This document shows positions 5,395 through 44,864 of a stretch of DNA of 64,000 nt, in pieces. The translations under genes were made by a program, and so were the position numbers. A model generated the notes under the pieces. The model was not told where the DNA came from. It was given only the letters and a program-made list of their open reading frames with translations, and ran no database searches. This stretch comes from Flavobacteriales bacterium (GTDB lineage: Bacteria; Bacteroidota; Bacteroidia; NS11-12g; UBA955). Where the stretch lies: NCBI GenBank assembly GCA_002737705.1, contig NSIM01000005.1:10623-74622 (forward strand), given 5' to 3'. Each line of letters starts with the position of its first letter. The first letter of the stretch is position 1.

Positions 5395-5398
5395 GGGC

Positions 5399-7544: not shown

Positions 7545-7578
7545 GCCAAAGTTCAACCAATTTCGGTTGAACTTTGGC
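7545..7578. promoter_or_regulatory. perfect 14-bp inverted repeat with a 6-nt spacer; operator or RNA hairpin candidate
   Basis: GCCAAAGTTCAACC aatttc GGTTGAACTTTGGC. It is about 95 nt 5' of the NrtR-like start on the minus strand. No U-tract follows on either strand, so it is not a classical intrinsic terminator. Confidence 0.4.
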
Positions 7579-7782
7579 GGAGATGTGAATACAGCTGAGC
7601 ATCGTAGACTAAATTAGTAAAAAACTAAGTTAGTACTATTGATATGGAAAAAACAAAAGAAATCATTGATTATTTAAAATTTTCAAACAAATTAAGGGTT
7701 TTGCGCTGTTTGTTTATTCGCAGCTTGCTCAAATTCAGGACAAACGGAGCAAATAGCATCAACCGACGACAGTGTCGCCTGG

Positions 7783-7845
7783 GAAGAAACAACTGAAACA
7801 GTTGATGATCCAGAAGAAACAACCATTGAAACAGTTGATGATCCA
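7783..7845 (+). repeat. imperfect tandem duplication (30 + 33 bp) encoding acidic EETTETVDDP / EETTIETVDDP units
   Basis: gaagaaacaac-tgaaacagttgatgatcca is repeated with a 3-bp insertion. It lies in a start-less reading frame that begins with a lipobox-like LFAACSNSG. Confidence 0.5.
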
Positions 7846-8137
7846 GGTTCGGACATTTCAACCGCTACTGCAAATGGGGGTATTGTAGTCTAAATCTGAT
7901 GTTTTTTCAATAATTGGCTGACTTTCCTTTGAAAGCAAGACTAGCACTATGTAAGTTCAAAAAAAACTGAGTAATCAGTTTTAATAAAAAACTGGCGGCA
8001 TAGATACAAATTCAATGATGCAATGTTTACTTTGTTCAAACCTGAAGTTGAAGCAAAAGTGACCTTGGCGTTCCGAAATGATAAAGGCATAATGCATATT
8101 CCTGAAGATACAATGAGTTAATCAATATGCCGACTAT

Positions 8138-8452
8138 TTGATTATTTTTGAAGATAACAATGCAATGATACTGACTGCAAGAATCACCAAACCTCCGCAA
8201 AATGATTCAAGAATTCATGGTGGAGATTCAGACTCGTTTTTAGCATGTTCTATTATTTTCAAGTACAACAAGTATCCTGTGGAAGGCCGAAAATTTGGCA
8301 CTCAAGGAATTTATTGGGAAATTGATGGTTTAGGATTCGTCATTACATCAAACGAAAGTGAAACAGTTTTTTCTAATTCAGAATTGAATACATATACTAT
8401 TTCCAATAATTTCGCCATGTGGCATGCCGCAGGTATTGCACTATTTAACTAA
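8138..8452 (+). CDS. hypothetical protein
   Basis: 104-aa ORF in an otherwise gene-poor interval next to a transposase remnant. No recognisable motifs. Confidence 0.3.
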   Translation: MIIFEDNNAMILTARITKPPQNDSRIHGGDSDSFLACSIIFKYNKYPVEGRKFGTQGIYWEIDGLGFVITSNESETVFSNSELNTYTISNNFAMWHAAGIALFN

Positions 8453-8510
8453 GAACTTACTAATGGCAAAGAAAAATAAAGAAGACACCATTAAGCCTAT
8501 TGAATTGATA

Positions 8511-8699
8511 TTATGGGATGCAGCCAATAAAGTATGAGGCAGCGTCGAACCAGCGCATCAACCCTTTCTCTCCAAGCTGGTCAAACTCATTTTTCCATTT
8601 ATAAAACGCACTCTTTTTTACCCCAAAAAATTCACACGCCACATTGTTTTTACCACGCTCTTTGGCATAGTGTAATACCCTTAAGTAGTTTGTAGGCAT
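8511..8699 (-). mobile_element. truncated transposase N-terminus (HTH / leucine-zipper region, IS481 or IS3-like); pseudogene remnant
   Basis: 62 aa, ...RVLHYAKERGKNNVACEFFGVKKSAFYKWKNEFDQLGEKGL..., resembles the N-terminal HTH of IS transposases. It stops after 62 codons. There is no catalytic domain and no terminal inverted repeats. Confidence 0.5.
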
Positions 8700-8877
8700 C
8701 CCCAGAATTTCGGATTTGCGGTAGTTCGGTTTCTTTGTGCGGGTAACTGATGGATAGTTCCCGTAATTCGAGTAATTGCTTGTCTTTCATCCAAGAGAAA
8801 AGAGAAAAATCCCACAGCATAAGCCATGGGATAATTCTACACTTTTTTTATAAGACGATTTTTTACATGTTTAGCAA

Positions 8878-14421: not shown

Positions 14422-14512
14422 GCGCCCATCTCTCACTCGCCTTCTTTGAAGGCTGAATCGATTCGGGCACAAAAAAAGCCTCAACTTTCGTTCAGGCCTT
14501 TGCTCTTGATCG

Positions 14513-14586
14513 TGCACTTGTAGGGATTCGAACCCCAAACCTTCTGATCCGTAGTCAGATGCTCTATCCAATTGAGCTACAAATGC
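14513..14586 (-). tRNA. tRNA-Arg (anticodon ACG)
   Basis: Cloverleaf read by hand on the minus strand. Acceptor GCATTTG / CAAGTGC. D-stem GCTC / GAGC. Anticodon stem TCTGA / TCAGA with loop CTACGGA. T-loop GGTTCGAATCC. CCA is not encoded. Confidence 0.8.
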
Positions 14587-28127: not shown

Positions 28128-30920
28128 TTATTTATTACTATCAAAAACCAATACTGTTCCCTGCCTATCAAAATTTCTAAATCCAGAAACTGTTTCATCA
28201 AAAATTGCATGGATGATGTAAACGTACATTCCCGTTTGAACTGGTTGATCCATATAAATTCCATTCCAAGCCTCACTTAAGGGTTTTTTGTCAAATATAC
28301 ATTCACCCCAACGATTATACACACTCCAATAACCTGTTTTTATTGCGCAATCCTTACCCCAATCATCGACAAATCTGGGACGTAATTCATCATTTAAACC
28401 CCGACTTCCAAATGGCGTAAACGCATTGGGCATCCACATTTTACAATCACATCTTAGAGCGAAAACAGTAACTGTATCGAAACGAATCCCGCATTCATTC
28501 TTTGTAGTCAATACATATACACCAGACTGTGAAACCTTTATATCTCCGGTTTTGGCACCTGTATTCCAGCTGTATTTACTGTATCCAGAAAATTGGAGTC
28601 CTTTTAGATAATAGGGATTACCTGCACAAAAATATTCGTTCCGCATCAACCGCTTCTCTGGAAATGTATCAAAATAAATATTAAATGTGTCGGTCCTAAC
28701 ACCACATACATTTGAAAGTGTTAACCAAAATTTTCCACTGCCAGTAATCAAACGACGGGGTCCATTGGTTAAATCGTCCCACACATAATTGATTACATTA
28801 GACTGGGTCATATTCAAATCCCATGCAAACTGCGAGGAACAAAATGTGGTGTCTTTGACCCTTGATTTAGTCGGCGAAAACTTGATTTTTACATCAAATG
28901 TATCATAAGCTACCCCGCATAAGTTATTGATTTTGAGAATGACGTTCTCGGTCGTGTAAAAAAGCTTAGGAACGACAGTATCAGCGTCTGGCCATGTGTA
29001 TTTACTTGCCACTACTTTGTTAAAATTTACCACTATCGATTTTCCCACGCACAAGGCAGTATCTTTTATTTTCGGGCTGACGGGGGGCAATAATAATTTC
29101 AAACGAACGGAATCGACCTTACTTCCACAGGCATTTCGAGTATCTAACCAATATACTCCCGGCTTCGTAAAAGTACGTGTAGACAGAGTACTTCCATTGT
29201 CCCACACATATTTACAAAAGGGTTGGGCTATATCAACAACAAGGGAAAACGGGCTTTTACAAAAAAGCGTATCTTTTAGTTTCGACTTGAATGGCGGAAC
29301 AGTTTTTCCTACGATAAGGGTATCTTTACGGGTACCACAGGCATTGGTTGAATTTACATAATAGGTTCCCTCAGAGGTAAATGTTCGTTTGGCCGATGTA
29401 TTGCCATCATTCCAACTATAAGATTCTGCCAATAATTGGGATGCGTCAACGGTAACACTGGGTACTCCAGGACAAAGAACCAAGGGAGAAATTACGGTTT
29501 TAATAGGAATTGGACAAGCTTGCGTGCAATTCACTGCCTGATTTACAATAAATGAAGCGGTGTCAAAAACCAGTGTAGACAAATCTCCAAAACTGCGGGA
29601 CGTATACGAAGATGTATCCCAAGTCCAGGTTATGTTCGTGCTAGATCCATTATTATTAGCCGTTCCGCAACTTGTGTTACAAGGACTGTTAATCATGAAA
29701 TTATGGTGGGATCCAGCCGAATTGTCTACCCCAAATGACACCATACCACCCTTTTGCATATAATCAAAATTGCGCGCAAATGTATTAGAAACATAATTGT
29801 TGTTTCCGTTCGACAAAATTTTCTGGGTTGTAATGGTTGCTCCAGTTGCAGTATCCACTTGAACCATCAATTGGCGACTCACCGTAACGGACTGATAAGT
29901 GGAAGTGACCCAAAGTGAAGACCCCTCCAACATAATATGTTGACCATTTTCAGAAATATTATTCGTCCCTATAGATTTTGTCCACTTAATGGTTCCGTTG
30001 GCCGTAAACGCTGTCAGCAGAATGTTGGCGGTAAGGTTTGATCCAGTTGTACCCACTGCGAACATGGTTCCTCCTTTGGCAACAACCACTGATCCAAATT
30101 GGTTAATTCCATTGGTTTTTCCTTTGAATATCTTTCGAACCTTTCCATCAAGAGCAATGAAAACTGCAAAAGGATAGGTTTGGGTTGATCGCGCCCACCC
30201 CGTAACAACCCACTCATTGCCAACCCTAGCGATCCCTTGGGCATGGTGTTCGTTGTTACCCAAATCAATATTTATCCCCCATCTCGTTATACCACTCGAA
30301 TCCAATTGTGCGGCAATTAAATTACGTTTTGCAGTTTGCTGGCTTCCCTCACCCACAACCACAAGGGTATTGGCATCATACACCAGGGCTTTGGTTATGA
30401 TGTCACTTTGATTGTTTCTGGCAGACGAAGGCGTTTGACGCGTCCATCGTAATTTCCCATCAGCTGAAAAATATGAAATTGTACCCAAACTGGCGCTAAT
30501 AGCGGAAGCAACAGAAGAACCAACCACCAATGCACCCCCTGATGGGGTGGACACAACATCATAAACCACCTCATTGGCACCCGAAGATTTGACACCAAAC
30601 CGAAGTGATTTGACAAACTTTCCCGAATCATTAAACTGCATCAACCAGCCATCGGAATGATTCGCCCCTCTTACAACGCCATATCCAGCCATCCAAAAAC
30701 CTCTATATCGAGAAGAAACACCGCTTGTGTTCCAAGAAGAAAAAATACCTTGGGCAGGTGCTACAACCCGCTCCGTATTTGTAAAATATTGTCTTTTAAT
30801 AAAGGGGTAGCAAATTGCTTGCGCATGACAAATGCTTACTTTCAATAACGATAAAATAACAAAACAAAGTACAAGAAATTGTTTGGTTACGATTGAATAA
30901 ATATTACAATTCATAAACAC
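28128..30920 (-). CDS. large T9SS cargo protein with a type B (gliding-motility-associated) C-terminal domain
   Basis: 930 aa with repeated ~60-aa Cys-containing modules. The C-terminal ...MPNAFTPFGSRGLNDELRPRF... matches the MPNAFTPNGDGxND type B CTD signature. Confidence 0.7.
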   Translation of the reverse strand: MFMNCNIYSIVTKQFLVLCFVILSLLKVSICHAQAICYPFIKRQYFTNTERVVAPAQGIFSSWNTSGVSSRYRGFWMAGYGVVRGANHSDGWLMQFNDSGKFVKSLRFGVKSSGANEVVYDVVSTPSGGALVVGSSVASAISASLGTISYFSADGKLRWTRQTPSSARNNQSDIITKALVYDANTLVVVGEGSQQTAKRNLIAAQLDSSGITRWGINIDLGNNEHHAQGIARVGNEWVVTGWARSTQTYPFAVFIALDGKVRKIFKGKTNGINQFGSVVVAKGGTMFAVGTTGSNLTANILLTAFTANGTIKWTKSIGTNNISENGQHIMLEGSSLWVTSTYQSVTVSRQLMVQVDTATGATITTQKILSNGNNNYVSNTFARNFDYMQKGGMVSFGVDNSAGSHHNFMINSPCNTSCGTANNNGSSTNITWTWDTSSYTSRSFGDLSTLVFDTASFIVNQAVNCTQACPIPIKTVISPLVLCPGVPSVTVDASQLLAESYSWNDGNTSAKRTFTSEGTYYVNSTNACGTRKDTLIVGKTVPPFKSKLKDTLFCKSPFSLVVDIAQPFCKYVWDNGSTLSTRTFTKPGVYWLDTRNACGSKVDSVRLKLLLPPVSPKIKDTALCVGKSIVVNFNKVVASKYTWPDADTVVPKLFYTTENVILKINNLCGVAYDTFDVKIKFSPTKSRVKDTTFCSSQFAWDLNMTQSNVINYVWDDLTNGPRRLITGSGKFWLTLSNVCGVRTDTFNIYFDTFPEKRLMRNEYFCAGNPYYLKGLQFSGYSKYSWNTGAKTGDIKVSQSGVYVLTTKNECGIRFDTVTVFALRCDCKMWMPNAFTPFGSRGLNDELRPRFVDDWGKDCAIKTGYWSVYNRWGECIFDKKPLSEAWNGIYMDQPVQTGMYVYIIHAIFDETVSGFRNFDRQGTVLVFDSNK

Positions 30921-31150
30921 CCGTTATAGACATCAAAAATGCACAAAACGTTTACTCAAACCCAAAAAAAATGTAATAATTGTGTCAAATTAAAATTAAT
31001 GGGCGTTTGTTGAATAGAAAAGTGCATTTGTCGTATTATTGCAAGTTGTGTTCAAGTGGCTAAAAGCAGAAGGGCTAAAACTGCCTGTATATTGGGTAAA
31101 TATGACGCAAAATACCGAACTTTACAGCCAGAAAGTTTTGCTCTACTAAA

Positions 31151-31720
31151 TTGAAAAAACTCATCATCTTTTCAGCACCCTCAGGGTCGGGAAAAACCAC
31201 CGTAGTGAAACATTTGCTCGGGGTACTCAACCCGCAACTGGATTTTTCGATTAGCGCGACCACACGCAATCCGCGTCCTGGAGAACTTGATGGCCGCGAG
31301 TACCATTTTTTGAAAGAGGCTGATTTTCGACAACAAATTATAGACAATAAATTTCTAGAATACGAGGAGGTATATTCGGGAATATTGTATGGAACTTTAT
31401 GGAGTGAAGTAACACGAATTTGGGAAGCAAAAAAATCTGTTATTTTTGATGTTGATGTAAAAGGTGGTCTCAAGCTCAAACACAAATTTGGGGACAAAGC
31501 CTTGGCGATATTTTTGAGACCCCCAAGTATTGAGATTCTTATGGAAAGACTTGCCAAACGAAGTACTGAAGTTGAACATCAATTGCAAGAACGCATAGAC
31601 AAGGCGCACTCTGAATTGGATTATGAAAGTCAGTACGATGCGGTCGTAATTAATGATTCACTTGAAAACACTTTTGCCGAATGCCTTACTTTGGTTTCGG
31701 ATTTTCTCAAAAAAACCTGA
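31151..31720 (+). CDS. gmk: guanylate kinase
   Basis: P-loop SAPSGSGKTT and a GMP-binding pattern. The start is the TTG at 31151; there is no in-frame ATG upstream. Confidence 0.85.
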   Translation: MKKLIIFSAPSGSGKTTVVKHLLGVLNPQLDFSISATTRNPRPGELDGREYHFLKEADFRQQIIDNKFLEYEEVYSGILYGTLWSEVTRIWEAKKSVIFDVDVKGGLKLKHKFGDKALAIFLRPPSIEILMERLAKRSTEVEHQLQERIDKAHSELDYESQYDAVVINDSLENTFAECLTLVSDFLKKT

Positions 31721-32325
31721 TGGGTATTTCAAACCCCCATATTGGCCTGTATTTTGGCTCATTTAACCCGATACATCTGGGGCATATGAAAGTGGCCAAG
31801 TACCTAAAAAAATATGGAAAATTTGATTCAATCTGGTTTGTGCCTTCTCCATTGAATCCCCAGAAGGCAGAAGAAATGCTATTGCCCGCAAATCTGCGTT
31901 TGAATTGGGTAAAAAAAGCCATCGCCGAAGATCCCGATTTCAAAATTTGCGATGTAGAATTTGGATTGGGAATGCCAAGCTATACATACCGTACGGTGAA
32001 ACATCTTTATTCAATGTATTCAGGCCATGTATTTTCCCTTCTGATGGGAGCCGACAATCTAATGGATTTTCACTCTTGGAACGACGCACAAAAATTGGCT
32101 CAAATTTGCCCCCTGCACGTGTATGCAAGGCCGGGATTTTTAAAACCTTCAGGAGAAATTCCATTTAATGCCAAGTGGTATGACTCACCATTATTGGATA
32201 TTTCGGCAACACAGATTCGAAATTTACTATTTGAAAAAAAGGACATTTCAGGGTTAATACCCGCCTCAATTTTACTCGACGTCGAGACTTTTTTTCAGAA
32301 CTTTATTGCGGAAAGTAACCAATAA
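31720..32325 (+). CDS. nadD: nicotinate-nucleotide adenylyltransferase
   Basis: GLYFGSFNPIHLGHM is the (H/T)xGH nucleotidyltransferase motif. The start overlaps the gmk stop (TGATG). Confidence 0.8.
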   Translation: MGISNPHIGLYFGSFNPIHLGHMKVAKYLKKYGKFDSIWFVPSPLNPQKAEEMLLPANLRLNWVKKAIAEDPDFKICDVEFGLGMPSYTYRTVKHLYSMYSGHVFSLLMGADNLMDFHSWNDAQKLAQICPLHVYARPGFLKPSGEIPFNAKWYDSPLLDISATQIRNLLFEKKDISGLIPASILLDVETFFQNFIAESNQ

Positions 32326-33192
32326 AAAAGCAATCGCAAAAGTTACAAAGAACGAATAGGCCGCATACACCAAAATAGGTTTTTCCATAACAGGGTTTCC
32401 CAATTTATCCCCCGCAATAAGCAATGCCAATGCGGTATTGTGTAAGCCAACTTCGATTGCAATGGTAACCCGATTTCGGTAGCTCAATTTCAAAGGAACA
32501 CCTACCAAAAATCCAATGAGCATACTGCCAATATTTAACGTGATGACATAGGGTGTGAGCAGTTGAACATCCGCAATATCCATTGCTGTACCACCCTGAG
32601 ACGGACTGGCAAAGAATTTATAGGCAAATACCAACAACAGTATACAAGGCAAAATAATATTGAGCCACTTGCCCAAAAATAGCGTCCGATCTCCGGTGCG
32701 TGAACGAACAAGCATTCCAAAAGCCGCGGGAATAATCGTTACAATAAAAATATCAAACAGGGTATTCCAAAAAGGCAATTGAATGAACTCGTTGGCCAGT
32801 GCAGACTCTTTCATGAAATAATGGAGAAAAAAATTTACCATGATTGGAATAGAAATTAGGGATAGCATCGCATTACAAACCGTTAAAGAAACTGCCAAAG
32901 CAACGTTTCCCTTGATTAAGTAACTGATTAAATTGGAGGTGATTCCCCCCGGACACACACTCAAAATTAAAATTCCCACTTTTAATTCATTGGCAATGGG
33001 GGCATAAATAGCAATGGCTGCGGCAACTAAAGGCAAAATGACCATTTGGGCAAACAGGCCAATTGCAAGAGATTTGGGCTGAATAAAAAGTTGCTGAAAA
33101 TCTTCTTTTTTAAGAGACACGCCTAAGCCAAACATAATCATGGCTAAAACCGCATTGAGAACAATGTTAATATCGATTGAAAATGATCCCAT
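32272..33192 (-). CDS. bile acid:sodium symporter (BASS) family transporter
   Basis: A multi-TM protein with a CPGGITSN motif. Its 3' end overlaps the nadD 3' end by 54 nt (convergent). Confidence 0.6.
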   Translation of the reverse strand: MGSFSIDINIVLNAVLAMIMFGLGVSLKKEDFQQLFIQPKSLAIGLFAQMVILPLVAAAIAIYAPIANELKVGILILSVCPGGITSNLISYLIKGNVALAVSLTVCNAMLSLISIPIMVNFFLHYFMKESALANEFIQLPFWNTLFDIFIVTIIPAAFGMLVRSRTGDRTLFLGKWLNIILPCILLLVFAYKFFASPSQGGTAMDIADVQLLTPYVITLNIGSMLIGFLVGVPLKLSYRNRVTIAIEVGLHNTALALLIAGDKLGNPVMEKPILVYAAYSFFVTFAIAFLLVTFRNKVLKKSLDVE

Positions 33193-33251
33193 TTATTGAG
33201 GTTGTTTGCAAAGTACATCTCAAATACGAGGCTACCAAATATACCGGGTAC

Positions 33252-34046
33252 TTAAGATAATTTATCCCGAACTATCGCCAAAAAATGGTCGAAAATACTT
33301 GGATTAGATGCTACAATTTGTTTGGCAAACAAAACCCCATTTTCTCCATTGAAATTGGCCACCTTTCCTCCTGCTTCTTGCACAAGTAACACCCCTGCGG
33401 CAATATCCCATGGCGCCAAACCCATTTCAAAAAATCCATCAAACCTTCCAGCAGCTGTATAGGCCAAATCAATGGCTGCAGAACCCATTCTACGCAAACC
33501 ATGGGTACCACGCATTAACGCTTCAAGCAATGCCAAATACGCATCCATTTTTTCGAATTCGCAGTAGGGAAATCCCGTGGCGATAAGCGAATGGTCCATG
33601 GCAATGACTTTATTCAATTCAAGGCGCACCCCATTTAAATATGCACCTTCACCCAAAGAAGCCGTGAATGATTCTTGTAGGGCCGGACAGCAAACAACAC
33701 CCAGTTGAAGCGCTCCATCTCGCCATAAAGCCACACTGATACTAAATATTGGCAATCCATGCAAAAAATTTGTAGTGCCATCCAAGGGATCAATGATCCA
33801 CGTTGGCTGAGACCCTAAAATACGTTCAGGGTTAAATTCTTCACCAATAAAAACAGATTCTGGCAACAACAATCGCAATTGGTCCATTAGCTTTTGTTCG
33901 GATTCCCGATCAACAAAACTCACCAGCTGGTTTAACCCTTTGTCTACTATTTCTGATTGTCCAATTTTTTGCCAATGTTGTAGTTGGAATATCCCCACCT
34001 CACGGCAAATCTTTTCCACTTCTGCAAGCAATATGGCATTGGCCAT
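33252..34046 (-). CDS. inositol monophosphatase family protein (SuhB-like)
   Basis: WIIDPLDGTTNFLHG metal-binding motif. Confidence 0.8.
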   Translation of the reverse strand: MANAILLAEVEKICREVGIFQLQHWQKIGQSEIVDKGLNQLVSFVDRESEQKLMDQLRLLLPESVFIGEEFNPERILGSQPTWIIDPLDGTTNFLHGLPIFSISVALWRDGALQLGVVCCPALQESFTASLGEGAYLNGVRLELNKVIAMDHSLIATGFPYCEFEKMDAYLALLEALMRGTHGLRRMGSAAIDLAYTAAGRFDGFFEMGLAPWDIAAGVLLVQEAGGKVANFNGENGVLFAKQIVASNPSIFDHFLAIVRDKLS

Positions 34047-34048
34047 GA

Positions 34049-34465
34049 TTAACAGAATTCTTCGTAGGCAAATCGAAGATTTTCGGCCAACATATCAGCA
34101 GTTCTTCCCTCAATCATATGACGCTCAACCATGTGAACCACTTCACCCCCTTTAAACAATGCTACAGCGGGAGAAGAGGGTGGGTATGGAGACATATATT
34201 CGCGAATTTTTGCAACGGCATCTAAATCTTGACCTGCAAAAACCGTTACCATTTTACTGGGTTTTTTACTGCCTGTCAATGATTTCAGAACACCTGGACG
34301 GGCAGACCCTGCGGCACATCCACATACAGAATTCACCATTACGAGGGTTGTATCCATATTCCCCTCAATATGAGAAACTACTTCTTCAGCAGTTTTTAAT
34401 TCGGTAAAACCACCTTGGGTTAATTCGGCACGCATCGGGGCTACAAGCATTTCTGGGTAAGGCAT
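34049..34465 (-). CDS. BrxA/BrxB-family bacilliredoxin (thioredoxin-like, CGC active site)
   Basis: 138 aa with NSVCGCAAG. Confidence 0.65.
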   Translation of the reverse strand: MPYPEMLVAPMRAELTQGGFTELKTAEEVVSHIEGNMDTTLVMVNSVCGCAAGSARPGVLKSLTGSKKPSKMVTVFAGQDLDAVAKIREYMSPYPPSSPAVALFKGGEVVHMVERHMIEGRTADMLAENLRFAYEEFC

Positions 34466-34623
34466 AACAGTAAATTATTATATCAACAAAGATACAATCC
34501 CCCAGAATACGATTTTTTTTTATATTTGTATTCGATTGTTTTTCTTTACATCCGTGTCTATCCAGAAGAAACCGAAACTCCCAAAACAATGAAGAATATT
34601 CCATTCATCTAAGCTAAAAACCC

Positions 34624-37600
34624 ATGTATATTACTTCCATTAAATACCTTATTGCCCTCATCTCCTTTGCTTTGGTGAGTGTATTGTCGTATGCAGCAAA
34701 TACATGGGGGGGTGAAATGTATGCCAGTCATATTGGCAACAACAAGTATATGATCACATACAAAGCATACCAAAATTGCGGTTCAGGAAGCAAATTGCCA
34801 GATACCACAAACATTAAATGCTATGCAGGCACATCTTACAGTTGTGGAACTGTGAGCATAAAAGCAAGTAAAATTAGCGTTCGTGACCTTACATACAAAT
34901 GCTCCACTGGCACAAGTTGTAAATTTGGAGCCCCTATTTCTGAAGTTATATACCAATGCACTGCTGATTTAAATAGCAAAGTCTATACATCTCTTTTGTC
35001 GGGTAGTTGTCAGGAAATTACTTTTTTTGCCACGGGTTGGTTCATGCCATTTGGTAGCTGTTATAGTGCTGGTGGGACTGAATCGGTGGTGGCAACAACA
35101 TTGTATATTGGCAATCTCAATCGATGTAAATCCAAAACCAATATCGCACCAGCGCTCTTCTTCGACCCCATTCGAAACATTCGGATTAATCAAAAAATTA
35201 CCATCGCACAGGGACTGGTTGATACTTCTGAATATGATTGGCTTCATTTCCAATTGTCCCCAAGCATGTATCAAGTACCCTTTAACAACAAAACTTGCAG
35301 TGCCACCCCCAATAGCAACTATTTAAATCCTTTCACCCCGTATTGTAATCCTGCCGCGATTCAATGTACCCCCAATAAAAATACCAGTCCCATCCAAGGA
35401 ACCCTTTTTGACACAATGAGCGGAGACCTGTCTTTTTACCCCACAGTAGCCGATGAAAAAAGCATTATTTCCTATAGAATTATGGAGTACAGAAGGGATT
35501 CTACCGGTAAATGGACACTCATTGCCAAGCATACCCGAGAAATTGGCGCCATCACCTTTGATGCCAATGGCACAAATGAAGCACCAAGCATTCTCTGGGG
35601 TAGTGGAATTTCCAAAACTTGTGTTGGGACAAGTGTGAAATCAAAAATTTTCGATATTACCGACTTCCCCGTGCCAGGACAATCCAAAGTCGACAGCCTC
35701 TTGGTGATTGTCCCAAAAAATATCAAAGGGGGCATATTGAAGGTGTATTCCTCATCAATAAACCAATCTGCTATTGAACTTAACTGGAATCCCAGCCTCA
35801 CTGATACGGCCTATATTCCCTACTTATTTCCGATCAAAATTATCGACCAACATTGCGATCCTCCTTTGGAAATGAGCATTACCCACCTATTTACGATTTA
35901 TCCCAAACCCGATGGCGAACCTCTTGTTTCATATTTGGGTTGCAACAAATTGGCCCTACAAGTAAAAAATCTGCGGGGCGGTCCCGATGTGAAATGCACA
36001 TGGCAAGTGAACGATGCAAATGGCAAACTTGTGGCAACCAGCAAATCTGTGAAAGACACCCTCTTTTTAAACGGACCGGGCAAATACAATGTGCAGGCTT
36101 TGTTTTCAAATCGCGGATTATGTTTTAAAAGCTGGGATACTTCTTTTAACATCATCGACACCTTAACTTCTTTCCATCTTGGTGGAAAAACCCTCATTAC
36201 AGACACCATCAATTGTCCAAATGCCACGTATTTAGCAGAACCATTCGACCTGGTTGGCAAAAACGCGACTCTCTCCTACCAATGGTATGCCTTAGATCAA
36301 ACCCTTGCCTATGGCTATAAAGACCCCCGAAAGATTCCAACCAATGCCCTAAAGAAAATTGCTACGTCAAAAAACCTGTCCATTTTACCCCGTTCTGATA
36401 CGGCTTTTTTATTGTCTATAACAGACAATCAAGGATGTATTGAATCGAGAGAATTGCGCATCATACAGATTTTTTCCAAAGCCTTGTCATGGAAAAAGAA
36501 ACCCCTTGAACCTATTTGCGCAAGCAATCCACCTTTCAAACTCATTGACCCCTTAAATAAAGACATGAGCACGGGCGATTTTTTTACAAACATTCGTTGC
36601 TTGAATGGCAAATACCTCGACAGTATCGGACCCAATTATTACAAGGTAAAAGCGCCTGCGAAACCCAATACTGGCGAAAAAATTTCACTGTTCCTTGTTG
36701 CGTCATTTGATACTTTGGGTTGCATCAGTCGGGATACCAATACAATTGATGTTGTCTACAGCCCACTATTTAATCTCAACAAAGAAATAAAAATTTGTAC
36801 CAGTGATTCTGGTTTTTGTTTATCTACCGCTGTAACCAAGCCCGCCACTAAAGCAAAACCCTTTGAATGGTCTATCATTTCAAAGCCATCCAAATCTCCC
36901 GCGCAATTGCTTTCCACAACGATCAATCATTGCAAAGGAATCCATTTAATAACGCATTTTGATTCCATCGCCCTGGGAAAATATGTCATTTCAGCATGTG
37001 CCATCGACTCTGCTTTGGGTTGTAGATCCTGTGATACAACCACGATCATTTCAAAATCTAAATGGACGTTTGTATACGTTGGCGATTCGGTTCTATGTCC
37101 CAACGATCCTCCCGTGCAATTACACAAATTCAATAAGGTCACCTCAGGAGAATCCTCGGACAGTATTTATTCCATGACATTTTATGATATCAATGGTGAA
37201 AGCAAACCCAACTTCAATCCATCCCAGCTCGTCGATACTAAAAATGGAATCCTTTTTCCACGGATTGCCACTGGAAAATTGCGTATTGCGTTTTCTCCAC
37301 AAAAATATTGCTATGCAGATGGACTGGTATTGCTTAGAATTCAAGACACCCTTGCAATTAAAAGCACAGTTACACCCGATTCTATCATTCGTCTCCCTAA
37401 AACATCCTTCACCTTCACTGCAAATACAATCTCAAGTCGCGTATGGTGGGATTTTGGTTCAGGACTCAACGCAGATACCTCCACCTTAAACCCCATTACC
37501 TGGTCGTTCGAAAATAAACCCGCAAGCTATCGCGTAAAAGTTCGCAGTTTTAATACCAATACATGCTACGGAGAAAGCCAAATAAAAGTATTTGTCTTGC

Positions 37601-37851
37601 CGGTTACTGCCCTCCAACTTTTCGATTTAAACGCCAAAATTGCCAATAATCTGCTATTGGTATCTTCGTATTGGACATTGGAAAAATTGGAAGTTTTCGA
37701 CCTTAAAGGCAAACGGGTTTATTTTAACACAACCAACCAAGGAGTCCCCATTAATGTGATTCCTTATGGCGTATATATCTATCGATTACATGCCCAAAAT
37801 GCAAAAAATCAAGTGATAAAAACCGGTACATGGGTTAATGTACTAGACTGA
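34624..37851 (+). CDS. large secreted T9SS cargo protein (type A C-terminal sorting domain)
   Basis: 1075 aa with a signal peptide. The C-terminal ~80 aa (...KLEVFDLKGKRVYF...GVYIYRLHAQN...) is CTD-like. Confidence 0.6.
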   Translation: MYITSIKYLIALISFALVSVLSYAANTWGGEMYASHIGNNKYMITYKAYQNCGSGSKLPDTTNIKCYAGTSYSCGTVSIKASKISVRDLTYKCSTGTSCKFGAPISEVIYQCTADLNSKVYTSLLSGSCQEITFFATGWFMPFGSCYSAGGTESVVATTLYIGNLNRCKSKTNIAPALFFDPIRNIRINQKITIAQGLVDTSEYDWLHFQLSPSMYQVPFNNKTCSATPNSNYLNPFTPYCNPAAIQCTPNKNTSPIQGTLFDTMSGDLSFYPTVADEKSIISYRIMEYRRDSTGKWTLIAKHTREIGAITFDANGTNEAPSILWGSGISKTCVGTSVKSKIFDITDFPVPGQSKVDSLLVIVPKNIKGGILKVYSSSINQSAIELNWNPSLTDTAYIPYLFPIKIIDQHCDPPLEMSITHLFTIYPKPDGEPLVSYLGCNKLALQVKNLRGGPDVKCTWQVNDANGKLVATSKSVKDTLFLNGPGKYNVQALFSNRGLCFKSWDTSFNIIDTLTSFHLGGKTLITDTINCPNATYLAEPFDLVGKNATLSYQWYALDQTLAYGYKDPRKIPTNALKKIATSKNLSILPRSDTAFLLSITDNQGCIESRELRIIQIFSKALSWKKKPLEPICASNPPFKLIDPLNKDMSTGDFFTNIRCLNGKYLDSIGPNYYKVKAPAKPNTGEKISLFLVASFDTLGCISRDTNTIDVVYSPLFNLNKEIKICTSDSGFCLSTAVTKPATKAKPFEWSIISKPSKSPAQLLSTTINHCKGIHLITHFDSIALGKYVISACAIDSALGCRSCDTTTIISKSKWTFVYVGDSVLCPNDPPVQLHKFNKVTSGESSDSIYSMTFYDINGESKPNFNPSQLVDTKNGILFPRIATGKLRIAFSPQKYCYADGLVLLRIQDTLAIKSTVTPDSIIRLPKTSFTFTANTISSRVWWDFGSGLNADTSTLNPITWSFENKPASYRVKVRSFNTNTCYGESQIKVFVLPVTALQLFDLNAKIANNLLLVSSYWTLEKLEVFDLKGKRVYFNTTNQGVPINVIPYGVYIYRLHAQNAKNQVIKTGTWVNVLD

Positions 37852-37958
37852 GCCCATCAACTTTTTGAATCCCTATTCAATGGTGTAACTATTATTGTAC
37901 TTTTTAGAATATATATTGTGACTATAATTTCATAAAATGTCCAATGAAAACCCCCTAA

Positions 37959-38393
37959 GTGACTATTTCAAAGCTGCCGTATCACCCCGATTTACTGGTT
38001 GCTTTTGGGGGAAATTCTATACGGATATGGGGAATTGACAATGCCAAAACAATCATAGATGAGGCACAAAAAATAGGGCTGACGGTGATGCTGGGGATGT
38101 GGTTGCAATACGAACGCCACGGTTTTGATTACAACAACAAAGCGAAAGTAGCCAAAAAATTGGCTCATTTTAAAAGTATAATTGATCAATACAAAGACCA
38201 TCCTGCCTTGTTAATGTGGGGAATTGGCAATGAAGTTGATTTGCTTTACAGCAATACCAAAGTATGGGATGCCGTTGAAGAAATTGCCCAATACGCTCAT
38301 AAAGTCGATCCAAACCATCCCACTTCTACTGTAACTGCCGGCTTAGATTCCCTTGAAGTAGCATTGATAAAAGAAAAAGTACCCAAAATATAA
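37959..38393 (+). pseudogene. truncated paralog (central ~130 codons) of the GH-A glycoside hydrolase at 5399..6748
   Basis: About 80% amino-acid identity to residues ~60-190 of the intact GH, including GGNSIRxWGID and LLMWGIGNEVDL. It lacks the N-terminus, the signal peptide and the nucleophile region. A stop follows ...IKEKVPKI. Confidence 0.75.
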
Positions 38394-38437
38394 TCTTTTC
38401 GGCACGTCGAATGGAGAAACGCACCCCTAAACGGCCG

Positions 38438-39784
38438 CTATTGCAGATTGCCCAATACAAATACTTGCTTACAATGATTATATCCAAGAAAATAGGGAAT
38501 TGTATTGAGGGCATTGATCGAATCTGTTGTAAAAAAATCGGCACGCATACCAGGAGCCAACATACCGACATTGTTTTCAAGCCGCAATGCCCTGGCTGCG
38601 TTACAGGTTATTGCATTCAACGCTTCTGCAGGCAATAATTTCATCTGGGTGCAGGCCAATGCCCATATTGTTTGCAAACTGAGGATCGGACTGCTACCAG
38701 GATTGAAATCTGAAGCCAATGCTACAGGCAATCCAGCGTCAATCATCGGTCGGACTGGTGCATAAGGGATACCCAAAAAATAACTTGTCCCGGGTAAAGC
38801 GACTGGCATCGTTCCACCCCCATCGCTCATAAAAGAATCGCGCAGGATGTCAATTTCACGACTGCTACAATGTTCTAAATGATCAGCACTCAAACTGCCA
38901 TTGGCCACAGCAACCTGAACTCCTCCGGTTAATCCCAATTCATTTGCATGAATCTTAGAAGGCAACCCCACTGCTATGGATGCTTTCAATATCCGATCGG
39001 TTTGGGCTGGACTAAAAAACCCCCGATCACAAAATACATCAATATAATCAGCAAGGCCTTCAGCAACAACCTGGGGTAACATCTCATTAATAACCAAATC
39101 AACATATAAATCTGGCTGTTCTTTATACTCCATCGGGATGGCATGGGCCCCCAAAAATGTCGATTGAATTATTATTGGAAATGCCAATTTTAGCCGCCCA
39201 ACAACCCGCAACATTTTAAGTTCAGCCTCCACTGTAAGACCATAACCACTTTTAATCTCCACTGTTGTTGTACCGTGAGCAATCATCAATTGTAATCTCT
39301 TGGCCGCTTGCCCAAACAGCGCATCCTCATCCATTGCCTGCAAGGCCTTGGCTGAATTTAAAATACCCCCTCCGGCTGCCGCAATTGTCTCATAGCTTTC
39401 TCCACCAATACGCATTACAAACTCTTTCCAGCGCGGCGCAGCAAAGACTAAATGGGTATGCGAATCTATAAATCCAGGCAATAATTCAACACCGCCCAAA
39501 TCGGTACATTCAAATTTCACAACACCCCCAGCAACAATTGACTTTGGGCTGTCAATTTTAAGACAATGAAGCCCCTCCACAAATTGATTGACTTCGAGGG
39601 CTAAAGATTCGGGCCCAAAAAACCCTTCCTCTCCTCCCAAGCCCACTATTTTTCCTTCTTCAACACATAACCACGCCTTTGAAAATGAATCTACGACTTG
39701 CATTGCAGCACCCATTTTAAACTCCCCAGGAACACCCGACACGCCCCACATTTTTGAAATACCAATAAATAACTTGCGCATCAA
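38438..39784 (-). CDS. hutI: imidazolonepropionase
   Basis: GFIDSHTHL, DHLE and amidohydrolase metal-ligand patterns. The exact start is uncertain because of several in-frame Met codons. Confidence 0.75.
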   Translation of the reverse strand: MMRKLFIGISKMWGVSGVPGEFKMGAAMQVVDSFSKAWLCVEEGKIVGLGGEEGFFGPESLALEVNQFVEGLHCLKIDSPKSIVAGGVVKFECTDLGGVELLPGFIDSHTHLVFAAPRWKEFVMRIGGESYETIAAAGGGILNSAKALQAMDEDALFGQAAKRLQLMIAHGTTTVEIKSGYGLTVEAELKMLRVVGRLKLAFPIIIQSTFLGAHAIPMEYKEQPDLYVDLVINEMLPQVVAEGLADYIDVFCDRGFFSPAQTDRILKASIAVGLPSKIHANELGLTGGVQVAVANGSLSADHLEHCSSREIDILRDSFMSDGGGTMPVALPGTSYFLGIPYAPVRPMIDAGLPVALASDFNPGSSPILSLQTIWALACTQMKLLPAEALNAITCNAARALRLENNVGMLAPGMRADFFTTDSINALNTIPYFLGYNHCKQVFVLGNLQ

Positions 39785-39809
39785 TTACAAATAACGCATT
39801 TTTGAAACA

Positions 39810-40352
39810 ATGACACCCGATGAATTGTTGCACAAATTACAAACAGCACCAAAAATATCCCCTACTGTATTTGTTGCACCCAACGCAACTATCATTGGCG
39901 ATGTAACCCTAGATTCAAACAGTAGCGTATGGTTTGGTGCTGTTCTTCGTGGAGATAGTGATTCTATCCGCATCGGATCAAAAAGCAATATACAAGACAA
40001 TGCAGTCATCCATACCGATCCCGGATTTCCCTGTATTATTGGAGAAAACTGTGTTATTGGACATTCTGCAATCGTTCATGGTGCAACACTGAATCACCAT
40101 GTTGTTGTAGGAATGAATGCTACGATTCTCAACAATGCCGTCGTGGGTGAATACAGTATCATCGGTGCCAATGCCCTAATCCCGCAAGGAATGATTATAC
40201 CACCCTATTCTCTGGTTCTTGGCATTCCCGGAAAAGTAGTTAAAACACTAGAAAAAAGTGAGGAAATTCGAATACAAAACAATGTGGATGACTATGTACT
40301 TCGTGCACAGACATACCGCAGATATTTTTCTGCTCCCAAATTTAAGGAATGA
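39810..40352 (+). CDS. gamma-class carbonic anhydrase / hexapeptide-repeat family protein
   Basis: Left-handed beta-helix hexapeptide repeats in a YrdA/PaaY-like pattern. Confidence 0.7.
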   Translation: MTPDELLHKLQTAPKISPTVFVAPNATIIGDVTLDSNSSVWFGAVLRGDSDSIRIGSKSNIQDNAVIHTDPGFPCIIGENCVIGHSAIVHGATLNHHVVVGMNATILNNAVVGEYSIIGANALIPQGMIIPPYSLVLGIPGKVVKTLEKSEEIRIQNNVDDYVLRAQTYRRYFSAPKFKE

Positions 40353-40381
40353 TATTTGTTTTCTCAGTCAAGTAATTCTCG

Positions 40382-41341
40382 ATGGCCCGCCGAACAAAAT
40401 ATTTTTACAATCCAAAAACCCTGAGTTTTGAAAAGATTTCAGAACAATTTCGGTATTTGATCTGGCGCAGAATTGGAGCAGGTTCGTTGTTTGTAGTGTT
40501 GATTCTCGTTCTTGGCTTTCTCATCGCTACTTTTTATGTCCGATTTAATTTAATGCCCAGCCAACAAAACAATTATTTTGTATTGTCTGAGTTAGAGCAA
40601 ACAAACCGCCAATTGGATGAATTTGAAAAAAAAATGGTATTCCTAGAAGAGAAAGATATTGGTATCTACCGTTCGATTTTTGATGTTCCACCCCCCAAAT
40701 CCGAAAATTTTCAGAGTAAGGATTACGCCTACTTACTCAAACTATCAAATGGGAAATTGTTGGTGAAAATTAAAGAGAAAGTAGCGCACCTTGAAGCCCT
40801 TGCCCTTCGCCAAGAAAAATCCTATATTACACTGCAACGCTTATCGAAAGGCAGAATCAAAGCCATCGAATCAATCCCCGCAATCATGCCCGTTGCAAAC
40901 AAAGATTTGCGGCATTTGGCGAGTGGATTTGGATACAGGAGAGATCCTTTCTACCACACCCCATCGTTTCATCCAGGCATGGATTTTACCGTGGCTACAG
41001 GAACAGAAGTCTATGCCACAGCAAACGGAAAAGTATCGCATGCACAATCAGAACCCTGGGGTTATGGAAACCACATCATCATCAATCACGGCAACGGTTA
41101 TATTACTCTTTACGGACACCTTAGTCGATTCGGCGTCCGAACTGGACAGCAAATAATTCGCGGTCAACTGATTGGTTATGTCGGAAATACTGGTCGATCA
41201 ACTGGAAGTCATTTGCATTATGAAGTGCGTAAATTCAACAACCCACTGAATCCCGCGTTCTTTTACCGCAATGATTTATCCGATGAACAATACCAAAGAA
41301 TGATTGAATTGAGCCAACGTGAAACAGCCCGTTTCGATTAA
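40382..41341 (+). CDS. M23 family metallopeptidase with an N-terminal TM and coiled-coil (EnvC-like)
   Basis: HPGMDF...GYGNHIIINHG...TGSHLHYEV are the M23 zinc motifs. Confidence 0.8.
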   Translation: MARRTKYFYNPKTLSFEKISEQFRYLIWRRIGAGSLFVVLILVLGFLIATFYVRFNLMPSQQNNYFVLSELEQTNRQLDEFEKKMVFLEEKDIGIYRSIFDVPPPKSENFQSKDYAYLLKLSNGKLLVKIKEKVAHLEALALRQEKSYITLQRLSKGRIKAIESIPAIMPVANKDLRHLASGFGYRRDPFYHTPSFHPGMDFTVATGTEVYATANGKVSHAQSEPWGYGNHIIINHGNGYITLYGHLSRFGVRTGQQIIRGQLIGYVGNTGRSTGSHLHYEVRKFNNPLNPAFFYRNDLSDEQYQRMIELSQRETARFD

Positions 41342-41392
41342 ATACCCCTTTTACTATTCAAGGGTGCACCATACCTTCGCAATACTTGATTA

Positions 41393-41749
41393 ATGGCAAA
41401 AAATTCTAACCCCATGGAAAATACTGAGATTCACTCAAAGACCTATCTAAAAATTGGCGCTGTAAGTACAATGATTGGTGTTCCAGCCAGCACCTTGCGG
41501 TTTTGGGAGAAAATTTTCCCCCAAATTAAACCGATGAAAAACAAGAAGGGAGACCGGTTTTACACAGCCAAAGACATCGTGGTACTGAAAGAAATTTATT
41601 ATCTTTCTCATGAAAAAGGTATTCGTTTGGCCCAAGCTTCGAAGAAAGTAAAGCGGAATGAAGAATGGGTAAATCCCCAAGCCAAATTGATCCAAGAACT
41701 CAGAGAATTCAAAGAAAAGCTCATTAAAATCAAAGAACAACTAGAATGA
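41393..41749 (+). CDS. MerR-family HTH transcriptional regulator
   Basis: YLKIGAVSTMIGVPASTLRFWEK is a MerR-type HTH. A C-terminal coiled-coil follows. Confidence 0.6.
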   Translation: MAKNSNPMENTEIHSKTYLKIGAVSTMIGVPASTLRFWEKIFPQIKPMKNKKGDRFYTAKDIVVLKEIYYLSHEKGIRLAQASKKVKRNEEWVNPQAKLIQELREFKEKLIKIKEQLE

Positions 41750-42597
41750 CAAGCTTAGAAAGGAATATCGGAATCTGTGTATTAAACCTCATTCTGACTC
41801 CTTTCTTACAAGCACAATTAGATTCATTTGGGGGCATAATTCATACGAATATCCAGCCTTCTCATCCAAGAAAAACAATCCAAATACTCTTTCCTAACCT
41901 GTTTTATGGCGAACAGAAAGCGATTACAAATAGAATTTTTTGCAATTATTACAACTGCGCCTCCGGGGTGATGGATTTGGCTGCAATTCGTGTCGGATTC
42001 CAATACAAACAATGGATAATAGAGTCGGGCCATATCGGCAGCAAGGACCTATCCGATCAATCCTTAATGGTTTCAAAGGGATTGAAAATTGGCAATACGC
42101 TCTGGCTTCAAAGTGGTGTTGGCATTGCATACAAAAGAATCTTGGGTCAATTTGACAAACAATTGGGCATTCAGCCAATGATGCGCATAGGGTGTACCTA
42201 TAATTCCAAACAGGGTGGCGTATGGATTTACCAAACAAATCGATTTCTGGGCTTTTCAGAAATGGGTTCGAAAACGATAAAAGATGCCCAAAAAACGAAA
42301 CTATGGGCAAGCAATATATGGCAGGAAGATAGAATAATTTGGTTGGGAAATAGCACCCATCCACTACAGCCATGGGCTTCAATAATACGAAATGCTGAAA
42401 CAGTTTTCGTTGAAGGTGGAATGGTTTGGCTGGGAGAAAAACAGTGGCGCGGGATATTTGCTGCCCGCAGCAACGAAAGTCCCATAACATTGACAATTGT
42501 GAAAGAGGATAACCGATGGACAGCAGGATTAAGTTTTCAATGGCACCAGCGATTGGGCTGGCAAGGCGGATTACAGGCAAACTATTTTTGGCGGTAG
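41746..42597 (+). CDS. secreted hypothetical protein, possibly outer membrane
   Basis: Its start overlaps the MerR stop (ATGA). It has a signal peptide and a Trp-rich sequence, with an aromatic C-terminus ...NYFWR. Confidence 0.45.
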   Translation: MTSLERNIGICVLNLILTPFLQAQLDSFGGIIHTNIQPSHPRKTIQILFPNLFYGEQKAITNRIFCNYYNCASGVMDLAAIRVGFQYKQWIIESGHIGSKDLSDQSLMVSKGLKIGNTLWLQSGVGIAYKRILGQFDKQLGIQPMMRIGCTYNSKQGGVWIYQTNRFLGFSEMGSKTIKDAQKTKLWASNIWQEDRIIWLGNSTHPLQPWASIIRNAETVFVEGGMVWLGEKQWRGIFAARSNESPITLTIVKEDNRWTAGLSFQWHQRLGWQGGLQANYFWR

Positions 42598-44864
42598 TAT
42601 CCATGATTGGATGCCTGTCTATATGTTCTGCTCAACAGGGTAATGTTCATTTTCCGATCATCGTCGGAAATGCCATTCCATTGGATTCCAACAATTGGGT
42701 AAAAAATGGTTTGCGTACTGGAGACAGAAAAATGGTTGAACACAATCTATCATCTATCAATCGCTGCATAAACTGTCACAAAAAAACAGACACAAGAGAA
42801 TGTAAGTTGGTCAACAAATTGTGGCGTATAGATTCACTTGAAGCACAAAAAAGGATGCCCACTGTGATGCATGAAATAGACACGACCTTGATTTTCATCA
42901 ATCAAATGAGCGATGACGATATATTGCACCACCCATTGCTAAATTTTGAAGACGGAATATCCATCGTCAATTACAAAAAACAGTTTGGCCCAATATTAAA
43001 TATCAGCGAATTAATACATTGTAATATTGCAATATACAAATTAATAAATCTGAAGCCATTTCTTCGATTTGACATGCCAATGAATTGGCAAAAAAGTCAA
43101 TGGATTCAACAAATAAAGGAGTCTAAACAAAGTATTCTATACGGGATACAATACCAACATAATCTTAAACATGACCCAACAACCATTGGCAAGCCCATGG
43201 GTTATTCAATGCAATGGCGGTTCAACAATGCCCATACTTTTTCGACAGGCATAACGCTACAAAGCGACCCGGGGGAAATTGTATTTAGACCCGATTTTAC
43301 GAGTTTTCACTTGAGATTATCGCAATGGAAAAAGGTTGAATCATGGGTTTTTGGAAGGTATACAATGCAACTCGGACAAGGATTGGTGCAAGGGGGCCTT
43401 TCTGGATTTTGGAATGCACCCATTGTCTGGGCCAGAAAAACACCCGATTGGTTGTTGGCAGAAAAAAGAGGTTTTGATGAATTCCGTGGATATACAGGCT
43501 CTGCTATGGCACTCAAAATAGGGGCAATACGAATAATAGCCGCAATCTCATCACAAAAAATATCCTGTCGCATTAACGAATCAGGGGAAATCACATCCCT
43601 GATTACCGATGGCAGATTCACGACTTTGCTGAATGAAAAACGAAAAAACAATACCCAATTGAAGCATTTTACCCTAGCAAGCCAATATGAAAATACTGCA
43701 AATAGGTATTTAACAGGCATGGCAATCAGTGCAAACACATACAATCGCACATGGGCTCCCGGTCATAAATGGCCGAATAAAACCCTATTGCAAGGCGGAA
43801 ATTTTTCCTTTCAAGGAATCGGCTCTCTGTTTGTCTATTGTGAAACCTGGTTTACAAAATACAATCGCCATGGCGGGATGTTGTTTGGTCATTACGCAGT
43901 GCAATTTTTATTCGATCCAACCCAGACAATGCAAATCTCATTCAACCCCAAACTGACAAAAAAATGGAATGCTGCGACCTCGTGTGCAGGAATAGTAGGA
44001 TATGCCTTGACACTGGGGAAAGAAACAGATATTTCGGTTCGTTGCTACCGCATTGAATCCGGTTTTCAACCAAGCCAAGGGTTGTTTAACCAATACACAA
44101 AAAATCTATTCTCAACATCGACAATGATTAGCCAGGGTAGCCAGGGAAAACGCGAATTCAAATATGGACTTACTATTGGAAAAGATATCGATTATACTTC
44201 ATCGGGAATTCGGCCAGTAACCGTAAAACACCAGATCCAATGGAACGAACCCATTGGGAATAGTTTCATGATTGGTCTATTTTGGCAGCTTAGCAACAAC
44301 AAAAATGAGGGAAATTGGGATGATTTTGTGGGGGCAAACCATGTCGATGAAGCAGTGAATTACAGCAAAATTGGAATCCAACAAGATCGAACGATACTGG
44401 GGAATAACGCACAACGAATTACATTTCAGATACAGCACCAAGCATCTGTTGGATGGAATTTTAAAAACAAAATCGCAATCATTCCGCAACGTTTTGTGGG
44501 TCAAACATCTTGTCTCTTTGCATTGACTTGCACCCATCGAAAGCCCTTTTCACCACTAAAAATTGGAGCAGAAATACTGCAATTCACTACCCCAATTGCT
44601 TTATACCACCAACCCATTAGTACCGCAAATAATTTTACGTCCTGGGTATTAACCGGGAAGGGATCAGCTGCCAATCTCCTTATCGAACACACCCTTGGAA
44701 CACGGAAAAAATTCGCGAACCCCATTGCCAAAACCCCTGAAAACCTCAAGAAAAAACAAAATTCACAAAAAATACACCTCTCCCTTCGCGCTGAAATCGT
44801 TCATAAAACAGAGAGTCAAAATTCTTATCAACCCCGTATTTTTGTATCGCTATGCTGGAAATAA
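42540..44864 (+). CDS. large secreted hypothetical protein
   Basis: Signal peptide ...[18 protein letters not shown]. It overlaps the upstream gene and is probably cotranscribed. Confidence 0.45.

Follow-up and report, generated by a model that had tools for sequence, protein, structure and literature searches.

A probable relic of the head of a second nrtR–GH158 operon between a T9SS cargo gene and hutI in a Flavobacteriales bacterium

Introduction

Glycoside hydrolase family 158 (GH158) consists of clan GH-A endo-β-1,3-glucanases built from an (α/β)8 barrel and an Ig-like domain (PMC7157763). In BuGH158, the acid/base N136/E137 lies after strand β4 and the nucleophile E220 after β7, and alanine mutants at N136, E137 or E220 are inactive (PMC7157763). 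Regulators of the NrtR/AraR family, which are associated with palindromic operators, provide a further point of reference for the locus described here, as do xenologous operon displacement and the pseudogene relics attributed to deletion bias. Pseudogene fragments left after a gene has become redundant or has lost selection are reportedly removed by deletional bias, a view that Mira, Ochman and Moran are said to have set out in 2001.

Here we describe a locus in a stretch of 64,000 nucleotides from a Flavobacteriales bacterium (contig NSIM01000005.1), which we call the window. An open reading frame (ORF) resembling part of a glycoside hydrolase lies 31 kb from an intact GH158 gene, and the original prediction presented it as a decayed second copy of that gene. 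Our analysis indicates, with a probability of roughly 85%, that window positions 37852–38437, between a gene for a cargo protein of the type 9 secretion system (T9SS) and hutI, are non-functional and derive from the head of a second nrtR–GH158 operon, of which they are a relic.

Results

The intact operon and its setting

The window carries an intact GH158 endo-β-1,3-glucanase homologue of 449 aa (5399–6748, reverse strand), which served as the reference copy. When its protein was compared with solved structures, it matched PDB 9oro, ‘Glycoside hydrolase family 158’ (E = 5e-89), and 6pal (E = 2.8e-65), an entry deposited under the title ‘Uncharacterized protein’ that we take to be the structure of the B. 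uniformis enzyme, BuGH158. Pfam returned weak GH2 TIM-barrel similarity only. Gene callers set the start of this gene at another codon. An intact nrtR (6759–7451, reverse strand) precedes it and encodes a Nudix-related regulator with the NrtR/AraR winged-helix domain (PF21906, E = 4.6e-25; PF19368, E = 4.4e-16).

These two genes head an operon that runs from nrtR and GH158 through genes for proteins of 621, 576, 334 and 244 aa to a GH3 gene and a 291-aa gene beyond the window start; it spans window positions 48–7451 on the reverse strand and continues in another contig (L067, 7524–10796). The order from nrtR or GH158 to the 244-aa gene is kept in more than 15 Bacteroidota genomes. In at least 20 other Bacteroidota the operon is single and complete, and never adjoins hutI. 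The eight-gene string from nrtR to the 291-aa gene recurs in the same order, with no SusC/SusD pair, in more than 15 Bacteroidota MAGs. Searches of Pfam and NCBIfam gave no match for the 621-, 576- and 334-aa proteins, and the 244-aa protein has a weak CBM30 match. The string is a candidate for a non-Sus system of β-1,3-glucan utilisation governed by an NrtR-type regulator.

Several other features were observed around the intact operon. The 1.4 kb upstream of nrtR (7452–8877) is gene-poor and includes a 62-aa ORF (8511–8699, reverse strand) with weak HTH_28/HTH_29 matches, which may be what is left of an IS-type transposase OrfA. A strong hairpin (CCAAAGTTCAACC...GGTTGAACTTTGG) lies at about 7545–7585, also upstream of nrtR, and the sole tRNA in the window is a tRNA-Arg (ACG) at 14512–14586 on the reverse strand.

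An internal piece of GH158 with both gene ends missing

The ORF listed for this region and called in public assemblies runs from a GTG start over 144 aa (37959–38393, forward strand). In BLASTP, its residues 9–144 aligned without gaps to residues 51–186 of the intact GH158, with 105/136 identities (77%), 92% positives and E = 4e-80. These values are close to the approximately 80% protein identity over residues ~60–190 that had been proposed, and the four blocks then named, GGNSIR, LGMWLQ, LLMWGIGNEVDL and DPNHPTSTVTAGLDS, are all found in the piece. Nor is the likeness limited to short motifs, the outcome under which the original prediction was to be abandoned: at the nucleotide level it runs unbroken and without gaps over 375 bp (38005–38379 against 6576–6202 on the reverse strand; 74.4% identity, E ~1e-67), the only strong non-self match of the region within the window. 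Identity between the two copies was flat, at 68–78% per 60 nt, and recombination or gene conversion between them was judged unlikely because nowhere are they identical over more than 14 nt.

The homologous piece itself, GH158′, occupies 37983–38390 and comprises 136 codons free of stops and indels. It represents residues 51–186 of 449, with both ends of the gene missing. At the front, the first 50 residues are absent and the signal peptide with them. The acid/base Asn-Glu motif GNEVD (GH residue 132), which corresponds to N136/E137 of BuGH158, is kept, and the piece ends 29 residues before the nucleophile motif ITEWG (GH residue 215; the nucleophile is E217 in the intact window gene). Strands β5–8 and the Ig-like domain are also gone, leaving half a TIM barrel. 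As GH codons 1–50 and all codons past 186 are missing, the earlier description of a copy lacking its start, its signal peptide and the half with the nucleophile is accurate.

The neighbouring genes were likewise correctly named. To the left (34624–37851, forward strand) is a gene for a 1075-aa cargo protein whose T9SS type A sorting domain scores just above the cutoff (TIGR04183, 23.7 bits against 23); to the right (38438–39784, reverse strand) is hutI, encoding a 448-aa imidazolonepropionase (TIGR01224, 386.7 bits against 298). The relic ORF and hutI are convergent, with 44 nt separating their stops.

Remnants of an nrtR start and two deletion junctions

The original prediction had also pointed to the two flanks of the ORF as places where further decayed homology might lie. 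The search was positive for the 107-bp spacer upstream, which contains an operator-like site and the beginning of a regulator gene. In the 44 nt on the right, no homology was detected to the operon or to the tail of the sister haplotype described below. An Rfam search of the spacers yielded nothing below E = 0.8, and a convincing terminator was likewise absent.

The regulator remnant, nrtR′, represents the first 16 codons, from the ATG on, of a second NrtR-family gene (MSNENPLSDYFKAAVS; 37937–37984, forward strand). It aligns with the N-terminus of the intact NrtR of the window (MDPKLIPFFKAAVSVDN): YFKAAVS in nrtR′ resembles FFKAAVSVDN in the intact protein and FFKSAFSVD and FFHAAFSVD in relatives. 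Its ATG at 37937 lies 22 nt 3′ of the operator match (37890–37914) and is collinear with it; the assignment is based on this collinearity together with short matches, of 7 aa in the window and 13 aa in the sister haplotype. The first 8 codons of the 144-codon ORF are this same nrtR′ remnant read in another frame.

Both edges of the retained piece could be placed to the codon. At the left junction, nrtR homology extends up to TCA at 37982–37984, and GH homology starts from CAC at 37983–37985 in a different frame (HPDLLVAFGGNS aligned to HLDVVVNIGGNS). In the coordinates of the intact locus, about 810 bp are gone, namely nrtR codons 17–230, the 10-bp spacer and GH codons 1–50. The frame opened by the nrtR′ ATG is out of frame with the GH piece and meets a stop at 38036–38038, while the GH158′ frame is preceded by an in-frame TAA at 37956–37958 and has a fortuitous GTG as its sole start. 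In GH158′, the homologous frame has no intact start codon attached to it, as is characteristic of a pseudogene. At the right junction, GH homology ends at codon 186 and a TAA follows immediately; this stop and the 44-nt spacer up to the hutI stop codon make up 38391–38437. Because an operator and the start of nrtR are present in the 107-bp spacer, the lost copy would have held at least a promoter/operator, nrtR and GH158.

A near-perfect copy of the predicted NrtR operator

The best non-self match of the upstream spacer within the window pairs 37890–37914 with 7502–7478 on the reverse strand, the operator/promoter of the intact nrtR. The two are identical at 22/25 positions, with a score of 35 against 17.6 ± 2.5 for shuffled sequences. 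The intact site, in a region 27–51 nt upstream of its own nrtR gene, contains the perfect palindrome TATTGTA-N5-TACAATA (7481–7499); the relic has TATTGTA-N5-TAGAATA (37893–37911), one mismatch from the perfect intact site. These are the only two palindrome sites with two or fewer mismatches in the 64 kb. Among six relatives checked, a TTATTGTA-N5-TACAC motif occurs 50–67 nt upstream of nrtR in four (L011, L013, L015 and L017) and is absent within 200 nt upstream of nrtR in the other two (L005 and L018). Since the palindrome is seen upstream of nrtR in related loci, it is most likely an autoregulatory NrtR operator, a prediction for which the motif was deduced from these sequences rather than from a curated regulon.

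Recurrence of the relic and a second deletion allele

An identical or 99% identical ORF was found in the same context in at least five independent assemblies (ERZ1305449, SRR12053439/40/42 and SRR5896115), which rules out a chimaera of assembly as the source of the relic.

A sister population (SRR217001xx; contigs L054–L063) has the same gene order, with flanking genes that are 96–99% identical to those of the window (dS 0.04–0.15). Its spacer between the cargo gene and hutI measures 286 bp, compared with 586 bp in the window. First in this spacer comes the operator, with TACAAA as its right half. The nrtR remnant has no ATG and extends further than in the window, through ...AAVSVDN (LSAYFKAAVSVDN, 10/13 identical to NrtR residues 5–17), and directly after it stands GACAATGCCAAAA, identical to the GH158′ codons D-N-A-K at window positions 38037–38049. 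Only 0.1% of shuffles yield a shared 13-mer of this kind. Nearly all of the GH piece has been lost from this population and a few GH codons are left, indicating that the piece is dispensable. Past NrtR residues 5–17, blastx gave no match, and the similarity between the tail of this haplotype and the nrtR C-terminal region was not significant (z ~2).

The simplest reading of the sister allele is an independent deletion from the GACAAT of nrtR ‘VDN’ to the GACAAT of GH ‘IDN’, since to derive it from the window allele one would have to assume a further insertion of 3 nt and the coincidental appearance of the family-conserved SVDN. Two independent deletion alleles would in turn mean that the common ancestor had a longer, possibly complete, nrtR–GH pair. 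In the part that the alleles share, 101/139 columns are identical (73%). The flanks, 96–100% identical further out, become less alike close to the relic: over the last 200 bp of each gene, identity is 84% for the cargo gene and 91% for hutI. The alleles therefore appear to predate by far the divergence of the surrounding genome, which would suit an old structural polymorphism or an allele imported by recombination.

One further stretch was noted in the sister population. The first 30 nt after its cargo stop codon (L054, 6554–6583, reverse strand) include 28–30 nt that are absent from the window and encode VVFRFEKTGL, which matches NrtR residues 18–27 (VVFGFDQSGL) at 6/10 positions (E = 2.3). 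The stretch lies upstream of the operator and thus out of order, and the likeness is probably due to chance.

Truncation rather than decay

GH158′ and the intact gene differ at 30, 12 and 71 sites in codon positions 1, 2 and 3, respectively, over 136 codons (22/9/52%), with dN ~0.14–0.16 and saturated dS. From this pattern, most of the divergence would date from a time when both proteins were still under selection, and the truncation would be recent compared with the separation of the two copies; the 9% divergence at second positions sets an upper limit on any neutral phase. Signs of relaxed selection are modest. At columns invariant in 49 homologues, the relic carries three substitutions, compared with a mean of 0.18 for the others, and its branch length is 0.185 against ~0.08.

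The sample holds no population variation in the relic: the haplotype A samples, which are near-clonal and 99.8–99.96% identical to the window, have zero SNPs in it. In simulations, the probability that the frame stays open was ~0.3–0.4 at 5% neutral change, ~0.1–0.17 at 10% and 0.04–0.08 at 15%, so the open frame is weak evidence either way. The word ‘decayed’ in the original prediction does not fit a piece with no stop or indel, a 22/9/52% pattern and only three changes at invariant columns. As far as its sequence can tell, the retained piece is truncated, not decayed, and its divergence arose under selection.

A synteny breakpoint at the 3′ end of hutI

The closest hutI outside this species is 68% identical. 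Two loci from outside relatives (L050 and L051) share the order hutI, hexapeptide protein, M23, MerR, ..., PdxJ, ..., OmpA; on the 3′ side of hutI, they carry an ECF sigma factor cluster without a counterpart in the window. The relic thus sits exactly at a synteny breakpoint, at the 3′ end of hutI, relative to the nearest outside relatives. The region had been called rearrangement-prone on account of the two GH copies; the copies themselves do not justify this label, which is backed instead by the synteny break and the two haplotypes.

Compared with the sister contig L054, window positions 29660–44830 show a mosaic of identity, from 84% to 100% per 200 bp, with low-identity patches at 29860–30060, at 31860–32260 and around the relic. 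This mosaic indicates frequent recombination between diverged lineages. Independent Logan contigs also break alike, L001–L003 at window position 35109 in the cargo gene and L067 and L068 49 nt upstream of nrtR, at the operator; strains may differ at these points, or repeats may lie there.

Relatives of the relic and the origin of the second copy

Own copies aside, a search of 5.8 billion proteins and 185,579 species genomes revealed no relative closer to the relic than the in-genome GH lineage (77–79%). It revealed no intact second copy either: all 45 related loci in the species genomes encode full-length proteins of ~440–470 aa that are ≤71% identical to the relic and belong to a single canonical operon, and exact-protein look-ups around the site returned the two haplotypes only. 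A scan of JGI metagenomes with a 21-mer from the relic found one unrelated contig. All matches listed in the first protein search were ≤252 aa, so there were no full-length relatives among them; short ‘partial’ protein matches, considered as a possible family of short proteins, turned out to be contig-end fragments.

The original prediction inferred an ancestral duplication of at least part of the glycan locus, followed by deletion. A second copy of part of this locus that was later reduced by deletion agrees with the operator, nrtR′ and GH158′ and with the distinct sister derivative, whereas a duplication is one candidate origin among several. If the intact operon or its head had been duplicated within the genome, and the copy had diverged before being deleted to a fragment, the in-genome GH lineage would be expected to be the closest known relative of the fragment, as it is, and the two sequences did group as sisters with 86% bootstrap under sparse sampling. 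With denser sampling this value falls to 37%, and the quartet site counts over these 136 residues, too short a stretch to separate a paralogue from a xenologue, are ambiguous. Moreover, dS is saturated, two copies occur in none of the relatives examined, and orthologues from other taxa resemble the intact GH more closely over these 136 residues (P0016, 87.8%; P0096, 83.8%; several at 80%) than the fragment does (77%). Composition also separates the copies: GC3 is 0.38 over the 136 codons of the relic and 0.515 in the same region of the intact gene (40 versus 22 paired third positions, p = 0.03). On this evidence, an in-genome duplication is doubtful. Composition instead draws attention to the intact operon, which is the GC3 outlier of the window: its seven genes from nrtR to GH3 have values of 0.475–0.513, against 0.31–0.46 in 33 other window ORFs and 0.40 just past GH3. 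As the GC3 of the operon equals that of its flanks in 14 other taxa (within −0.02 to +0.04), the raised value is no general property of the operon, and it suggests that the intact operon was horizontally acquired or that, in this species, its codons are under unusual selection.

The GC3 of the relic equals the host background, and we tentatively entertain, at somewhat less than even odds, a xenologous displacement in which the relic is what was left of an older resident operon that was made redundant by a later, horizontally transferred, GC3-rich operon and then deleted. The gene-poor 1.4 kb with the possible OrfA remnant, adjoining the intact operon, is in keeping with such an arrival. Against it, the GC3 of the relic is taken from 136 codons (p ~0.03) and would also fit AT-biased drift after inactivation, no GC-richer donor lineage was found, and codon-usage selection in this one species is an alternative source of the contrast. 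The operon proteins are 45–68% identical to their nearest homologues, about as far as hutI (68%), so sequence distance gives no transfer signal. Composition therefore favours, short of proof, the relic as the older resident and the intact operon as the later arrival. There may also never have been a working operon at this site, if a rearrangement breakpoint took up foreign DNA, bearing nrtR and a portion of GH158, from a related member of the Bacteroidota. The position of the relic exactly at the synteny breakpoint and the lack of any trace of downstream operon genes (the 621-aa protein and so on) would be explained in this way, but the two haplotypes require an ancestor with at least a promoter, an nrtR that was whole or nearly so, and the GH gene as far as codon 186, the 73% identity of the shared part points to long residence at the site, and the composition is host-like. 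We regard such a capture as unlikely.

Could the relic still function?

Judged by what it lacks, namely the signal peptide, the nucleophile Glu, the full barrel, the Ig-like domain and a linked start, the relic cannot give rise to an active glucanase, and a coding function of the fragment finds no support. Other roles can be imagined for the fragment or the operator, as a cytoplasmic half-barrel protein, an NrtR decoy or an NrtR-controlled antisense promoter into hutI. The open frame, which gene finders call as a gene, the convergent arrangement with hutI at a distance of 44 nt, and the left half-site with its flank (ACTATTATTGTACTTTTTA), which is the same in both haplotypes within a region that is 73% identical, would all be compatible with such a role. 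The GH frame, however, is unconnected to the nrtR start codon, catalysis is precluded by the absence of the nucleophile, and three substitutions have fallen at family-invariant columns. The sister population has, in addition, dispensed with almost all of the GH piece and with the nrtR ATG, the mismatch in the right half-site differs between the haplotypes, and by our own estimate an identical run of 19 nt is not significant at 73% identity (P ~0.1). Any residual function is therefore very improbable. A wider variant has the spacer between the cargo gene and hutI as a long-lived structural polymorphism that either records how a horizontally acquired, GC-richer operon displaced a resident β-1,3-glucan operon or retains an active operator, serving as a decoy or as a glucan-responsive antisense promoter. 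The two deletion alleles are indeed ~27% diverged within genomes that differ by 3–4%; we consider this variant improbable.

Discussion

The reading that we prefer, a non-functional relic of an operon head, would involve a short series of events. A second nrtR–GH158 (β-1,3-glucan) operon would once have stood between the T9SS cargo gene and hutI. An internal deletion of ~810 bp, with 2–3 nt of microhomology, may then have joined nrtR codon 16 out of frame to GH codon 51, and a second deletion would have removed everything past GH codon 186. In the related population, a separate deletion would have produced the shorter derivative. The presence of this shorter, independent derivative in a close population suggests that the relic is being removed stepwise, presumably through the usual bacterial deletion bias.

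For annotation, the 144-aa ‘glycosyl hydrolase’ in public protein collections should be flagged as a pseudogene fragment. The locus also offers a clean small example of the loss of a redundant operon, with junctions mapped to the codon and two independent deletion alleles in sister populations, and the compositional contrast hints at which operon copy is the newcomer. It opens no new biological question: the relic is an ordinary pseudogene of a known kind whose anatomy is unusually well resolved.

Compared with the described systems, the intact window gene matches the BuGH158 (PDB 6pal) and 9oro series, and the relic corresponds to a barrel segment of these enzymes whose end lies shortly beyond the acid/base N-E motif that follows strand β4; it differs from them in having no nucleophile, no strands β5–8 and no Ig-like domain. 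Whereas the Bacteroides 1,3-glucan PUL is under hybrid two-component control (PMC7157763), the window operon has an NrtR-type regulator and no SusC/SusD pair. The intact regulator resembles NrtR/AraR-family proteins with palindromic operators in having both winged-helix domains and a conserved upstream palindrome; the relic carries a one-mismatch copy of this predicted operator.

The arrangement as a whole recalls xenologous operon displacement, in that two diverged operon heads are present, one intact and compositionally atypical and the other host-like and degraded. It differs in that the copies lie 31 kb apart rather than in situ, and GC3 is the one feature that suggests a direction. With the pseudogene relics attributed to deletion bias, the locus shares a truncated internal gene piece alongside a full-length homologue in the same genome, microhomology-associated deletions and differing states of erosion in close populations. 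It departs from them in the near absence of point decay in the retained piece and in the survival of the promoter/operator and the adjacent regulator start, through which both deletion junctions could be mapped to the codon.
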